A DNA stretch of 64,000 nucleotides from Eledone cirrhosa (lineage: Eukaryota). The notes under the pieces are model-generated. The model worked only from the letters and a program-made list of their open reading frames with translations. It was not told where the DNA came from and made no database searches. The position numbers and the translations under genes were made by a program. Of this stretch, positions 1 to 60,290 are shown in pieces (position 1 is the first letter of the stretch; each line of letters starts with the position of its first letter). The stretch spans positions 44,330,001-44,394,000 of the forward strand of contig OZ024756.1 of NCBI GenBank assembly GCA_964016885.1. Direction: 5' to 3'.

Positions 1-35
1 TAGTTTCAAGCTTGTTAGCTATCATCAGCACCGTT
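1..35 (-). ncRNA. Type I hammerhead ribozyme, family A (cut by window edge)
   Basis: Reverse complement reads AACGGUG CUGAUGA U AGCU AACA AGCU U GAAA CUA... Confidence 0.75.
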
Positions 36-504
36 TACCCATCTGCCAGATAGTTGAACGTTCGAAAGTATATACTTTCCTTATGAAAATTAACGGCTGA
101 GCAGCCTAATTTGCATATTGAGTGAGTTAAATCGGTCAGGCATTCCGAAAACGATAAGTTGAAAAAAATGAAAACGAAATTTCATTTCTCACTCTTAGTA
201 TGGCACTTACTTAAATGTAAGTATGTATGTATACGTACATACATATATGTATACAGACGTACAGTAGCATGCATATATATATATATATATATATATATAT
301 ATATATATATATATATATATATACATATACATATATATACACACATGCACACAGGTACACATACATATATGCACGCATCAGTTTAGCCGACGTTTATTAT
401 AACGCAGCTTTGTTCGTTTGTTTGTCAACAAACAGAACAGCCTGAATTTATGCCATACAGTGTTAAGGCAACCACGTCACCTTTTTGTTCAACACTGACA
501 CAGG

Positions 505-549
505 AACGATGTACTAGTTTCAAGCTTGTTAGCTATCATCGGCACCGTT
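505..549 (-). ncRNA. Type I hammerhead ribozyme, family A, core variant CCGAUGA
   Basis: Same as the other family A copies except U4>C in the core; stem I AACGGUG/CAUCGUU is intact. Confidence 0.8.
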
Positions 550-1094
550 TACCCATCTGCCAGATAGTTGAACGTTCGAAAGTATATACTTTCCCTATGA
601 AAATTAACGGCTGAGCAGCCTAATTTGCATATTGAGTGAGTTAAATCGGTCAGGCATACCGAAAACGATAAGTTGAAAAAAATGAAAACGAAATTTCATT
701 TCTCACTCTTAGTATGGCACTTACTTAAATGTAAGTATGTATGTATACGTACATACATATATGTATACAGACGTACAGTAGCATGCATATATATATATAT
801 ATATATATATATATATATATATATATATATATATATATATATACAGATATACATATATATACACACATGCACACAGGTACACATACATATATGCACGCAT
901 CAGTTTAGCCGACGTTTATTATAACGCAGCTTTGTTAGTGAGAAATGAAATTTCGTTTTCATTTTTTTCAACTTATCGTTTTCGGTATGCCTGACCGATT
1001 TAACTCACTCAATATGCAAATTAGGCTGCTCAGCCGTTAATTTTCATAAGTAAAGTATATACTTTCGAACGTTCAACTATCTGGCAGATGGGTA

Positions 1095-1139
1095 AACGGT
1101 GCTGATGATAGCTAACAAGCTTGAAACTAGTACATCATT
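1095..1139 (+). ncRNA. Type I hammerhead ribozyme, family A
   Basis: AACGGUG CUGAUGA U AGCU AACA AGCU U GAAA CUAG UA CAUCAUU; canonical core, palindromic stem III (ACUAGU), one mismatch in stem I. Confidence 0.88.
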
Positions 1140-55932: not shown

Positions 55933-56845
55933 GAGAGAGAGAGAGAGAGAGAGACATTTCTTTATTTGCCACAAGGGCGCACAAAACAAGGACAAAAGGG
56001 TGACAAAACAAGGACACATGCCGGGAATTTTACATACAGTCGTGTAAAAATATTGAAACAAACAAATTTAACAATCGAAATCCCCAATAGGGGGGAGGTG
56101 CCACAAATGGGTTGTTTAATACCCCGTCGATAGAACAACCCTCAACTTGTTGTGCAAGTGCTCCTTTCTTCCTTTTGCTCTCTTCTTCAACCTACAGGTT
56201 TATATACAGAGAAGGCCAAATCACTCGGGCTATTTTTGCTACATTCACCCACCTTTCAGTAAATTTACTGGGGTGAAGTGCCTCTCTATCCACTCTGATT
56301 CTCCTTCTAAAGTGATATCTAAAGAAGGGAATGAGTTGTTGTCCGGAGAGAAAAGCATCTGTCCTCAGTCCTCTCAATCTCGTCCACCATATAACCTCTT
56401 TCACCATAGCCACTGTACAGAGGAAAACCGCCTTTCTTTCGTTTTTGAAAGAAGTTGGCGGTTTGATCCTTACTATGGACTCGGCAGTCAACTGGATTTG
56501 TCCCATACGCGACAGCAGTTGTTCTGTGTAGTTCCACAGGTCGGTTACGCCCGGGCAGTGTACAATTGCGTGCAATACGGTTTAATGTCCTGCTCGCATC
56601 TTGGACACGTCCTCTTGGAAGGATCCCTGCCGGGGCATCAGTGCCTGTAAATCTTGTCTCGAACTGGTAGAGCTCCTTGGTAGCACTGCCAGGCCAGGGA
56701 CCTCTGGAAGTTGTCCATAGGTCTCGGGCGGAAAGTCCTACCAAACAGACTGGTGAGTTCGTCGTCTTCGACGCCCAGAGTCTCTCCGAGCACGTCGTCG
56801 CCCTTGTAACGTACTAACCCTCTATAGAATGTCGAAGTGGAGTCT
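55933..56845 (-). mobile_element. Tx1/L1-clade LINE 3' fragment ending at (TC)n
   Basis: Zinc-knuckle remnant CPRC..HAIVHC..LW and VIWWTR; 3' end aaataaagaaatg runs directly into (TC)n. Confidence 0.7.
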
Positions 56846-57599
56846 CAGATAGATATGTATTAATTCGTTTGATGCCTCATTTGGCTGCTTTAATGCTCAA
56901 CTTTCACTGTTGATCTGTAGTTGGTGTGTTTAATGTATTCAAATTTAAAATGGTTCCTAGATCTTTCTCCTTAGTTAACACAATCCACGTATATATATAT
57001 TCTTATTATAGGATATCCTATATATATATATATATATATATATATATATATATATATATATATATATATATATATATATATATATATAAGACATCCTGTT
57101 GGATTCTATGTTATTTTCTTGTATAACCATTTGACATATTTCTCTATGCTAAGTTATATTTAGTTTTCCAATACATCTTTTTATACCATACTTCGAATTT
57201 GTTATTTTACTCCCTGCTACATCTGTTTTGTTTTTCTTACATACTGTTTCTTTCTTTCTCTCTCCCTCTCTCGCCTCAGTCTCGCGCTTATATACGTATG
57301 TATATATATATAACAATATATGTATATTTATATATATATATATTATATATATTTATATAAGCGTGTGCGTGTGTTTGTATGAGAGATATTTTTAAATATA
57401 TAAACAGAGAGAGAGCAAGTTTAGATGAAATACTATGTAGCTTCGGAAACGTCTGTAAATCAAATATTGGTAGATCCAAACAAAACTAACATACGATTTC
57501 CGAAACGCCTGCATATTCTATCGATGTAATCAAATCTCTTGTCAAATAACAAAGCTAGAAATCAACTTTATTATTATTATCATTATTATCATTATTACT

Positions 57600-57752
57600 G
57601 GATTGGCAGCATCGGTAGAACGTCTGACAACGTGCTTTGCAGCATAGAGTTACGGCCTATTTTGTTCTGAGTTCAAATCCTGCCGAGGTTAGCTTTGCCT
57701 TTCATCTTTATCGGGTCAATACAATAAAGTACTGGGGTCGTTTTAATCGACT
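57600..57752 (+). mobile_element. SINE, abundant family
   Basis: tggcagcatcggtagaacgtc head, gagttcaaatcc, ctttgcctttcatc. Confidence 0.7.
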
Positions 57753-58869
57753 GAATTGTTTTATTCCGGGGACTGTTGAAACATAAACCTCGTTTGTTCT
57801 ATGTCAGCCTATGAACTTATCAGCCGACTCTCTTAAAAGATTTTGTTTCGTCGACTGTTCGTGTTGATGCTTCTTAGACATGTAACAGGTAATTTGTTGA
57901 CGAGAAAGTTCCCCACCATAGATTGGTTTCAATATCATCAAACTAATTCCATTAAACTGTAGCTAAGCAACAGTCCTTAAAAATAAAAGCGCCTCCTCGC
58001 CTTTTATCTGTCATTGAAAGGTGGTTAGTTTGGCGACATACTGTACAGCAGTTTGATCTACAAAGCAACTGTAAGAAATTTCAAACAGAGCAGCTAGGTT
58101 ACAGTGACAGATATCTCCTTAAAATGCCCCATTACTGAAACCCTTGAGAAACTGCATCAATTTTGAAGTAGTTCAACGAGACACGAAACCTCTATTGGGT
58201 TGTTGATAAAGAAAGCAAATGCAATACAAATGTTGAGCAGTCAGGTCAGTTGATTATAATACTAACCGAAACATACACTGTAGGAACAATATCTTCAAGT
58301 ATATATAGCTTTGGAATGGGCTACTACCGTAGCTTCTGCCCTTGGCAAATAACTGGTATTTTGCTACTCCATACAAACTCTTGATTCATCCACTGTCTAT
58401 ATTGTGCCCAACACACACAGATTCATTGGAACGAAGATATTCATAAACTGAACAAGTACTAAATACTTCAAAAGGTAGGTTTACATACATTTTTTTTATT
58501 TCATATATTAGTTTTCTCATATTTGCTTGGGTCACCTTCATACATACATATATACATAAATACATGAATGTATATATGTATGCATTCATTTATTTATGTA
58601 TATGTGTGTGTATGTATGAATGCATGTATGTGCCTGTTTATGTATATATGTATGCATGTATGAATATACATATATATATTCATACACACACAAACATCTA
58701 ATATATATATATATATATATATATATATATAGAGAGAGAGAGAGATAAATAGATAGATATAGATATATAAATACATACATACAATATATATATGTGTGTG
58801 TGTGTAGATATTTACATACATATATATATGTGTGTACTTACGTATATATATATATAAAAATATATATAG

Positions 58870-60290
58870 ATTTTGAGTTTATGTTGGTTGTATACCAACA
58901 CCTCAGTATGCAGGCTGGGGCACTCGACGAAGTGCGCAGGTTGGTTTGGTTACTCCGGAGTAGTGTAAAATAAAGTTAAATAAAAGTCAAATGATTAAAA
59001 TTTAGCTTCGTTTATTACTGCTATATATATTTCAGTGACAGCCATCTTTGGCTGTGACCTCTTCAGGCAGTTTGAATTAGTATGGTATAGACAAGTACAT
59101 ATGTTGTTGAGGTGTATAATATTGTCAATACTCTGATATGCCCAGTTCCTTGTTGGGTTGTTATTTCACTGAGGAACTGGAATCATATGAATTCAAACAA
59201 ACGAATTTCCGTGTTAAAGGTCCTCTTCTCCTCTCATTGGTCAGTTATTAGAACATTCCTCATTCTAAGTGTTGTTATTGTTGGAGTTAGCTTAAAAAAT
59301 TGATAAAATGGTAGAAGGGACAAGGTGTTAAAGGAACAAGATAACAAAAAAAGTGTCAAACTTCCCATTGGTCAGTTCTGAGAGCATTCCTCAGTCAGAA
59401 GTCTATAGAATTCTTTCTGGGGTGAGGCTCGTTGTAGTGTTTTTGTTTGCCATTGTTAAGTACATTTGACCTCCACCATTATTTTGGTAGTGTTGTTGGT
59501 GTTGTGGTCAGCTTATATCTTGCTGTTGCTAACAATTTAGAAGTATCCAGCGTGTGTTTTTTCTTCATCCCTCCTGCCACCATTCTCATAGTGGTGGTGG
59601 GGGGGGGGGGGTTATTCCATGTATATGAAGAAATATAAGGCAATAAATGAAGAAAACAGAAAATAAATAAATAATATAATAAAATAATTAATATAATTTG
59701 TATAATTTGAAAATAAATAAATAAATAGAGAATAAAGAATAAAGAATAAATGAAAAGTTGGTGAAAAAGTAATGAAAATGAATATAGAGAAGTGAAAAAT
59801 AATGTAGGATAAAGTGTGTGTGTGCTATAACCAATCTCAAGGTCAGAAATATGTTGGATAGATTGGTATTAGGACAAGATGTTAAGATAAGATAATCAAA
59901 CTAAATGTGTTTGTGTTATAATCAATCTCAACTTAAAAATAAATATAAGGTGATACAGTGAAGAGGGCAGAAAACAAATAACAAATTAATAAAGAGAAAT
60001 CAAGATTTAAAATTGGAACTTGAAAATCAGAAATCTAGTAAATTAAAAAGTGTTTGTGTTTTATAGATGTTGGCCAAATTATAATGGCTGTGTCCGATTC
60101 TATCTTCAGGCTATCATGGTGTCTGCTCAGCCTGGGTTGTTCCCTATGGCTTGAGGGGAGTTCACAACCTAGGGTGTTGTTACTGCCCATATAGCTTGAG
60201 GGAGGTCTGGCCGAGAGGTGTTTTCATGTTCTGTAGAAGTCCCTAGAGCTTGAGGGGAGTTCACATCTTCTTGTGTTGCTACTGTCCATA
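58870..60290 (-). mobile_element. Probable Penelope-like 3' region/pLTR
   Basis: (TA)n flanks, an intact HHR about 150 bp from the end, short internal duplications, possible ORF end near 60040-60110. Confidence 0.55.
59017..59071 (-). ncRNA. Type I hammerhead ribozyme, canonical core
   Basis: ACUGC CUGAAGA GGU C ACAGCCA AAGA UGGCUGU C ACU GAAA UAUAUA UA GCAGU. Confidence 0.9.

Follow-up and report, generated by a model that had tools for sequence, protein, structure and literature searches.

Hammerhead loci in the window

The window, the whole 64-kb stretch of Eledone cirrhosa DNA that was analysed here together with a 1.36-Mb sample out of the 3.0-Gb genome, contains 24 hammerhead-derived loci from at least ten families according to homology searches. 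Twenty-two of these, in ten families, could be itemised by homology (Table 1). An earlier note on this DNA had listed about 18 motifs in about eight families. Its folds are real: at each coordinate it gave there is either a type I hammerhead fold or a copy that, though decayed, can still be recognised, and three half-sites are among the loci (34235-34288, 50584-50696). The presence of many families was borne out as well, but loci and families are more numerous than listed and only seven of the 24 loci have a complete core, six with the sequence CUGANGA and one with a U3-A8 core. The incomplete ones comprise five loci of family B, where A4 is fixed across the family, one of family G with the C4 of a subfamily, and others which are decayed or truncated (542, 6236/6345, 21684, 46044, and 48364). 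The sixth canonical core (-28) crosses the start of the window and is complete in the adjoining DNA. The locus at +7417, the parent elements, and the twin hairpins described below were absent from the earlier note.

Table 1. Hammerheads, bulged hairpins, and coding remnants in the window.
Feature	Position	Strand	Remarks
Family A array	1-1941		514-nt tandem units, two inverted arms; hammerhead cores -28, -542 (U4C), +1102, +1616
Family B 3' end	1991-2882	-	A4-core hammerhead (core -2045), short end into (TA)n
Family C inverted pair	6011-6510		both hammerheads 5'-truncated, U4C + G12A
Family C arms			left: hairpin 1 (about 6100-6172, minus) and tail; right: short end
U3-A8-core hammerhead	7413-7454	+	locus +7417
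Bulged hairpin, truncated copy	8295-8326	-	E 8e-4
Family B copy	12361-12570	-	A4 core, damaged stem III
Bulged hairpin, truncated copy	19688-19723	-	E 0.024
Family D long-arm hairpin 1	21608-21643	-
Family D hammerhead, decayed	21677-21756	-	G12A
Family D hammerhead	21896-21975	+	intact core, palindromic stem III, short end into (TA)n
Hydra-type RT thumb and linker fragment	26313-26627	-	inverted 5' part of family B insertion
Family B CxCx5C linker and GIY-YIG endonuclease fragment, Hydra-type	26653-27099	+	51% to Hydra-type protein P0121
Family B 3' end without 754-nt intron	27182-27440	+	A4 hammerhead (+27286), hairpin 1 (27350-27411), tail, (TA)n
Family I half-site	34235-34288	-	hammerhead 3' half, truncated in stem II
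Family G minimal hammerhead	38012-38067	-	C4 core, bulged A, G10.1-C11.1
GIY-YIG ORF fragment upstream of family G	38439-39374	-	PF01541, E 3e-5
Family F hammerhead	46049-46120	-	G12U here; G12 in nearly all other copies
Family D relative	48359-48436	+	core decayed
Family E hammerhead	49696-49860	+	intact core, U·U, 124-nt stem II region
Family I inverted half-site pair	50584-50780		right arm: hairpin 1 (50698-50737) and tail
Family B inverted long arm	50845-51121	-	A4 hammerhead (-50984), hairpin 1 (50860-50920), tail
Family B body	51141-52360	+	endonuclease C-terminus 51143-51361; A4 hammerhead (+52302); short end into (TA)n
Family H hairpin 1	58914-58969	-
Family H hammerhead	59011-59080	-	intact core, palindromic stem III

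Five intact canonical cores were counted in the window as compared with none in 20 local dinucleotide shuffles, a type of control proposed in the earlier note, and cores with at most one change numbered 11 as compared with a shuffle mean of 0.2. The 1.36-Mb sample yielded 94 hits with the hammerhead descriptor and 0, 0, and 0 in shuffles, while the relaxed descriptor at one mismatch has a background of 3 to 6 hits. When descriptor hits were set against shuffles, the type I fold with three stems and stem I open was found. Intact cores occur once per about 14 kb of the sample, which extrapolates by this descriptor to about 2×10^5 in the genome, and remnants once per 2.7 kb in the window and 4.8 kb in the sample; the proposed density of one per 3-4 kb thus fits remnants but not intact cores. 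That standard annotation misses a very large complement is supported: against these roughly 2×10^5 cores, a search of the window and six loci at Rfam gathering thresholds gave no hit, and an E-value scan of the window no hammerhead among the 150 matches listed, nearly all of them microsatellite-driven miRNA.

Stem III is palindromic in 92 of the 94 sample hits, one G·U being allowed, and forms a hairpin in families B, F, and I. The four families with a U·U opposition at positions 10.1/11.1 reported in the earlier note are A, B, C, and E. A G10.1-C11.1 pair is present in seven of the 94 hits, bulged in two, and within the window in family G only. The association with (TA)n was also upheld, (TA)5 lying within 150 nt downstream of 59 of 98 intact sample hits as compared with 15.9% of random windows. 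N7 varies freely in families D and I, whose cores are fixed. The covariant U3-A8 core occurs in family I; A3-U8 and G3-C8 cores were found at background level only. CpG decay was considered for the C4/U4 alternation in family G; by eye the arms of listed inverted pairs usually have the same state, which favours subfamilies.

Family B has at least 16,600 copies, and its body contains a GT-AG intron-like segment (51446-52199). Family E is old, with relatives 69-76% identical across long matches. Family A is retrozyme-like, with U·U and a palindromic stem III; its exact core occurs 10,718 times in the genome as compared with 0 in the control, its unit spacings are 466-538 nt, and its units contain a (TA)n tract; no link to an ORF was found for it, and it has two fixed ends yet lacks the bulged hairpin described below. 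Copies change at core positions like neutral DNA. Most loci of the window are dead or truncated ends of retroelements and not a working ribozyme complement. Of 329 copies, eleven begin no more than 4 nt from the cleavage site, with no pile-up of 5' ends there, and cofolding gave lower energies for dimers, yet no clean hammerhead dimers.

Parent elements

The hammerheads sit in the pseudo-LTR tail ends of many families of Penelope-like elements (PLEs), largely of the Hydra clade, which remain as short, mostly broken, and often inverted insertions within (TA)n. Upstream of families B, D, f1, and f9, and on their strand, are the parent ORFs. Since an upstream ORF was seen for only 6 of the 98 intact sample hits, the assignment of most families to Hydra is based on the hairpin and the end pattern that they share and not on protein. 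A full-length tandem array of family I has a unit of 3,542 nt, longer than the less than 3 kb general in the Hydra clade, and encodes a 717-amino-acid protein with the motifs RWR, DKT, CxCx5C, and CxxC/CxH, which are conserved among 120 homologues (RWK-type in 112, DKT in 113, CxCx5C in 111, and CxxC/CxH in 115). The Hydra-type protein P0121, to which the family B protein is 55% identical, has RWR where the clade has RWK, plus a GIY-YIG domain at its C-terminus that, as read from sequence, is without CCHH and has CxxC and CxH around E and N. CxCx5C was also found in the ORFs of families D and f1. Searches of Pfam, NCBIfam, and PDB gave no match for the Hydra proteins, P0121 included in the case of Pfam. 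An assignment of the ORFs to the Neptune type had been considered and was dropped after the DKT and CxCx5C motifs fitted Hydra. The preference of the Hydra clade for (TA)n insertion sites is seen here too. The ORF fragment upstream of the family G hammerhead, by inspection, reads as a CCHH-type endonuclease and not as a Hydra one.

Twin hairpins and fixed 3' ends

Downstream of the hammerhead lies a bulged hairpin, RCUC…UN-GAGY, in two copies about 55-90 nt apart before the start codon. The order in a unit is ORF, 3'UTR, hammerhead, hairpin 1, tail, hairpin 2, and the next unit's start codon. Among 39 relatives whose proteins are 36-43% identical, 28 have at least two hairpins before the ORF, nine have one, and two have none; hairpin 2 lies about 34-70 nt from the start codon. 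Hammerhead core boxes were found upstream of 22 of 24 hairpin twins. In this genome hairpin 2 was seen in two families only.

The 3' ends are bimodal. In seven families 142 of 148 copies fall into two classes, one ending at hairpin 1's foot and the other where the tail, about 70-95 nt long, stops. In both families with read-through copies (I and B) the tail end is the foot of hairpin 2, which follows about 6 nt past the long end. Divergent, inverted pairs consist of one short and one long arm in 43 of 46 cases. Of the 22 alignment ends in metagenome loci, only 12 lie at a hairpin foot; among the other ten are four microsatellite matches and three breaks between diverged subfamilies.

Hairpin hits numbered 105 in sense and 15 in antisense orientation, and 92 of the 105 have a Watson-Crick inner pair 1 as compared with 49 with shuffled partners, which indicates covariation. 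In one check two of five measures were not above shuffles, and the inner stem of hairpin 2 is weak (0-1 pairs in 40 of 91 matches).

Proposed mechanism and alternatives

The arrangement quite probably means that the hammerheads sit in Hydra-type pseudo-LTR ends whose two 3' ends lie at the feet of tandem hairpins, these being likely docking sites for the reverse transcriptase (RT). The template would be a read-through tandem transcript with one protein bound per hairpin. Two nicked (TA)n strands would then act as primers for cDNA that begins immediately 5' of each of the two hairpins, giving head-to-head arms with the tail on one side. The hairpins likely set both start sites of reverse transcription, which would explain the one-sided tail of PLEs. 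The RNA that is copied would be uncleaved or religated at the hammerhead site, cleavage would occur mostly in dimers, and hammerheads may be retained by selection in active lineages. The wider proposal, somewhat better than an even bet, is that a clade-wide hairpin pair docks two RTs and fixes both starts as the first defined cis-signal for inverted insertions tailed on one side, in a genome with about 2×10^5 intact hammerheads that include a working A4-core variant.

An unlikely alternative, though the best of those considered, is that the twin motif acts as DNA, as a recognition site of the endonuclease, the ends being cut a few bases upstream of each motif in a longer cDNA or donor copy. 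The tail has been credited to endonuclease-mediated resolution (Craig 2021), and the endonuclease of Drosophila virilis Penelope requires the tail for recognition, as cited in PMC11167929. The outer four pairs of the hairpin are nearly invariant in sequence, and its inner stem has 23 G·U as compared with 18 A·C, not a clear excess, which leaves RNA-level pairing unproven over a DNA-level signal. Against this, the arms are separated by a spacer of variable length, 8 to more than 60 nt, and its inner positions covary across a bulge of 2 nt (54 of 95, versus 3, 3, 5, and 12 at other bulge sizes), a combination that makes a double-stranded site hard to accept, and both ends correspond to RT start sites in the sole reconstituted PLE. 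More improbable still is a role of the hairpins in another step, such as translation of the ORF next to them, folding of the hammerhead, or packaging, with ends that coincide only because AU-rich single strands flanking any stem anneal to (TA)n primers. The short distance from hairpin 2 to the start codon, the AU-rich short ends, and the two ends of family A without the motif would fit such a role, but ends lie a few nucleotides from the foot of the motif in unrelated families of differing spacing, and translation would require only a single hairpin copy. That the folds match by chance in AT-rich repeats, or form a ribozyme network used by the host instead of being retroelement debris, is very improbable despite the low complexity of the window and the background of relaxed descriptors, as shuffled and reversed controls gave about zero intact cores, by which a chance origin is refuted, and copies decay neutrally at core positions within PLE-type inverted insertions.

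Comparison with known elements

The hammerheads are not surprising in kind, since high-copy hammerheads of many families in PLE pseudo-LTRs (PMC4209133) and U·U (PMC3088659) had already been published. Both (TA)n targeting and U10.1·U11.1 are in print for the Hydra clade (Craig 2021 supplement, PMC8557442; Perreault 2011, PMC3088659); U·U has been reported as a natural variant that is active (PMC3088659, section 8) and, counted by eye, appears in 14 of the 26 rows that the Craig 2021 table gives for the Hydra clade. The elements resemble that clade, which includes an Octopus bimaculoides family, in RW[KR], DKT, CxCx5C, and CxxC/CxH (section 11 diagnostics), in GIY-YIG at the C-terminus, in (TA)n targets, and in a hammerhead that lies close to the 3' end and often has U·U. 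They differ in the tail, given as 30-40 bp for PLEs generally, and in the 3.5-kb unit, as compared with "generally" under 3 kb; and whereas 27 families were listed and additions called few (PMC8557442), Hydra-type ends occur here every few kb. The twin hairpins are present in consensus sequences of that work, the published Hydra-1_Ajap starting with both, but are unmentioned there: its text and supplement text have no hit for "hairpin" or "stem-loop". A literature search found no description of a twin hairpin in Hydra-clade PLEs.

With the minimal hammerheads of PLEs (PMC4209133) they share type I topology, palindromic stem III, the many families, opposite-strand pairs, and the U3-A8 variant, whereas G10.1-C11.1 with an extra nucleotide after A9 is rare here, and no core with fixed A4 was described there. 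Copy number is about 20-fold above the 9,000 given for Xenopus, obtained with different descriptors. Poseidon in vitro has two internal RT starts bounding the tail and inserts without need of cleavage (PMC11167929). [quoted passage not shown] Family A and non-LTR retrozymes (PMC7229834; Li et al. 2026 preprint) both have tandem non-coding units with a type I hammerhead each; family A differs in its longer units containing (TA)n (retrozymes, 150-450 nt), PLE-type inverted arms, and two fixed ends.

Significance

The twin hairpin is the part for which the literature searches found no earlier description, while PLE hammerheads, (TA)n targets, and U·U were already known. The reverse transcriptase of PLEs is the sister of telomerase. 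The genome may rank among those with the largest hammerhead sets, up to 120,000 having been reported for axolotl by other methods (PMC7229834), and family B with its fixed A4 core offers a test of whether cleavage matters for the spread of PLEs. As a precise marker the twin hairpin can serve to annotate Hydra elements which Pfam and Rfam miss, and as a short covarying motif marking both ends across distant hosts it makes the choice of the RT start site testable by mutation.

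Hammerheads in the Window

For the analysis of the window (positions 44,330,001–44,394,000 of its contig, approximately 34% GC with many microsatellites, in an assembly of 3.0 Gb) a type I descriptor was used with a free 10.1/11.1 pair, a stem II of up to 160 nt, and a palindromic or hairpin stem III. It found five intact canonical cores (CUGANGA/GAAA), whereas 20 local dinucleotide shuffles contained none; with one core change allowed, the matches rose to 11, compared to a shuffle mean of 0.2. Homology to natural reference copies yielded 22 loci in 10 families, and 24 loci when all references were included. 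The hammerheads listed in the earlier note are thus real, but a complete standard core is missing in 17 of the 24 loci, namely, five of family B which carry A4, one of family G which carries C4, and others which are decayed or truncated. As the genome-wide relatives of families C (291 matches) and F (194 matches) carry G12, the window copies of these two are mutants. Family E is an old family; in an alignment with 13 relatives, agreement with the window copy is 87% for core cells and 79% for the remaining cells. Each half-site is a family I copy that breaks off inside stem II. The U·U opposition at positions 10.1/11.1, which had been proposed for four families, was confirmed in families A, B, C, and E.

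Features located in the window and in fetched stretches
Location	Strand	Feature
1102, 1616, 21911, 49707	+	Intact canonical cores
59066	-	Intact canonical core
28	-	Sixth canonical core, completed by DNA adjoining the window
7417	+	U3-A8 core, absent from the list of the earlier note
51143-51361, 26653-27099		GIY-YIG C-terminus, family B hammerhead downstream
51446-52199		754-nt GT-AG intron-like segment in family B pseudo-LTR
27182/27183		Family B copy at 27182, segment precisely absent
2129-2404, 51948-52218		139-nt tandem duplication within this segment
50584-50696		Family I copy 5'-truncated in stem II
23015-26163	+	Near-intact LINE, APE endonuclease and RT frames (PF14529, PF00078), one stop interrupting
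~30450-30610; copies at 31311, 35309, 36900, 49415, 49896, 57600, 61430, 62500		Dispersed short repeat, SINE-like
56120-56813, 34795-35163	-	Fragments resembling other LINE C-termini, no Pfam match
L158:7014-9804		At least 10 tandem 310-nt units, intact hammerhead in each; typical non-LTR retrozyme array
L250-L251 (G000:C1:91.47-91.49 Mb)		Tandem array of full-length Hydra-type family I units, 717-aa frames open

Genome-Wide Scale

The suggested relaxed scan against dinucleotide shuffles was run, and shuffles gave close to 0 intact cores in the window and in a 1.36-Mb sample. This sample comprises 136 stretches of 10 kb spaced evenly over 19 large contigs; it is not strictly length-proportional and leaves small contigs unsampled. 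The sample contained 94 intact cores versus 0, 0, and 0 in shuffles and 0 in reversed sequence. The union of two descriptors gave 98, that is, 0.72 per 10 kb (bootstrap 0.51–0.96) in 24–27 families, and extrapolation from this sample yields an estimated genome total of about 2.2×10^5 intact cores (1.5–2.9×10^5). Admitting U3-A8 cores and odd palindromes gave 109 matches versus 0, 2, and 2 in shuffles, and remnants of any kind numbered 283 versus 2 in the control. The association with (TA)n was borne out, (TA)5 lying within 150 nt downstream of 59 of the 98 intact matches compared to a background of 15.9%.

Exact cores were counted genome-wide per family, the reversed controls all being 0. Family A has 10,718 copies; in family B, 16,624 copies carry A4 and a further 178 have a different base at this position. 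Family G has 3,641, the first 100 listed comprising C4 in 64, U4 in 35, and A4 in one, as counted by eye; family I has 3,411, A8 being invariant among the first 100 listed and N7 free. A C4 core also recurs in a third family (fetched stretches L131, L168, and L192), and position 4 has therefore been altered at the founder level at least three times.

Thousands of hammerheads per genome in Penelope-like elements (PLEs) of many families, with palindromic stem III, opposite-strand pairs, U3-A8 cores, and low activity as dimers, were described by Cervera and De la Peña 2014 (PMC4209133). U10.1·U11.1 is a natural variant and the best-tolerated mispair, and U4C is active in vivo in a viroid (Perreault 2011, PMC3088659). 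Craig 2021 (PMC8557442) includes Hydra elements that target (TA)n, among them an Octopus bimaculoides element, and U·U occurs in 14 of 26 Hydra rows of its hammerhead table as counted by eye. As U·U, (TA)n, and many-family PLE hammerheads are in print, the observation as originally worded is a dense case of a phenomenon already described. The axolotl has up to 120,000 retrozymes (Cervera 2020, PMC7229834), and a giant squid paper gives 235 hammerheads by covariance model. Of the very large, under-annotated complement postulated earlier, the unusual scale thus stands, but the hammerheads are known ones of a known clade.

Carrier Elements

The family B hammerhead lies downstream of a GIY-YIG C-terminus in the window and at fetched loci is preceded by long RT frames; families D, f1, and f9 have an upstream ORF of the same GIY-YIG/RT type. 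Such an ORF was found for only 6 of the 98 intact sample matches, owing to the shortness of most copies, and one of the six is an unrelated neighbour. Family I occurs in five tandem units of 3,542–3,543 nt, a candidate source locus, encoding a 717-aa protein with RWR, DKT, CxCx5C, and CxxC/CxH motifs and without CCHH. This is the motif set diagnostic of Hydra according to Craig 2021 (PMC8557442), and each motif is common to 111–115 of the 120 homologues listed. In family G the hammerhead is preceded by a different endonuclease of the CCHH type, and family A, a non-coding tandem, resembles retrozymes and has inverted arms as well as two ends at fixed positions.

The precise loss of the intron-like segment from a family B copy, with an identical joint in contigs of run X1, indicates that spliced RNA was sometimes retrotransposed. 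In family I, 56 of 101 copies are 5'-truncated in stem II, 40–50 nt before the cleavage site, giving fold-back insertions of about 200 nt; stem II may be a place where reverse transcription stalls.

A Twin Hairpin at the Insertion Ends

Many unrelated families share a motif downstream of the cleavage site. It opens with RCUC and an inner stem, followed by a loop that varies, a 2-nt bulge whose first base is U, and finally GAGY. When this fold was sought without reference to the hammerhead, 124 were found in the sample versus 29–34 in shuffles, other bulge sizes being near background, and a hammerhead 3' half lay 20–110 nt upstream of 36 of the 124 versus 0–2 in shuffles. Sixteen of 21 representatives were aligned, the rows being chosen partly for pairing; 98% of the cells are paired, and 24 have double changes versus 7.8 (0 of 500 shuffles). 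Two other measures were not above shuffles.

Across seven families, the 3' end lies at the hairpin or immediately before it in 84 copies, 62–96 nt beyond in 58, and elsewhere in six. One short and one long arm are combined in 43 of 46 divergent pairs. In read-through copies of families I and B, the hairpin recurs at a distance of 78 and 90 nt, respectively; this second copy lies about 6 nt beyond the long end and precedes the start codon.

The hairpin model from this genome was applied to 79 fetched metagenome loci with proteins 36–43% identical, where it matched mostly on the ORF strand, adjoining the ORF start. Upstream sequence of 170 nt or more was present at 39 distinct loci, of which 28 had two or more matches, nine had one, and two had none, a few matches being overlapping or spurious; ORF-body windows matched in 50 of 378. 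The spacing is mostly 55–70 nt. When nothing but the outer stem and the 3' flank served to anchor the rows, inner pairs 1–3 were Watson-Crick in 92/105, 60/99, and 37/66 versus 49, 29, and 17 with shuffled partners; as rows are mutually related these counts yield no probability. Of 22 ends of metagenome alignments, twelve coincide with the foot of a hairpin; the other ten include four microsatellite matches and three subfamily breaks. The published Hydra-1_Ajap consensus has both hairpins at its beginning, and two further Hydra consensuses have the first at their end. U·U was found in 17 of 22 distant relatives.

Implications for Retrotransposition

In a Poseidon element, according to Frangieh 2024 (PMC11167929), the tail is bounded by two internal sites at which reverse transcription begins, cutting and extension affect both strands of the target, the protein is a predicted dimer, and hammerhead cleavage is dispensable in vitro. 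By analogy, one protein would dock on each hairpin of the Hydra elements, and cDNA would start just 5' of each, one per nicked (TA)n strand. The weak inner stem of hairpin 2 and the two ends of family A, which lack the motif, speak against this reading, as does the count of 23 G·U versus 18 A·C in the inner stem of the hairpin, with G·U not clearly in excess.

The cleavage site is the starting point of only 11 of 329 copies, and both insertion ends lie 20–140 nt past it, so the copied RNA would have been uncleaved or religated. As the core is conserved across families, cleavage likely matters at another step, for example the release of the 5' end or the formation of circles. In family B, either the A4 core is active or the spread took place without cleavage.

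No mention of the twin hairpin was found in literature searches, the text and supplement text of Craig 2021, or Rfam, and no report of a U4A core in a literature search. The hammerheads are of a known kind and a known clade at an unusual scale, and the twin hairpin is an apparently undescribed cis-element.
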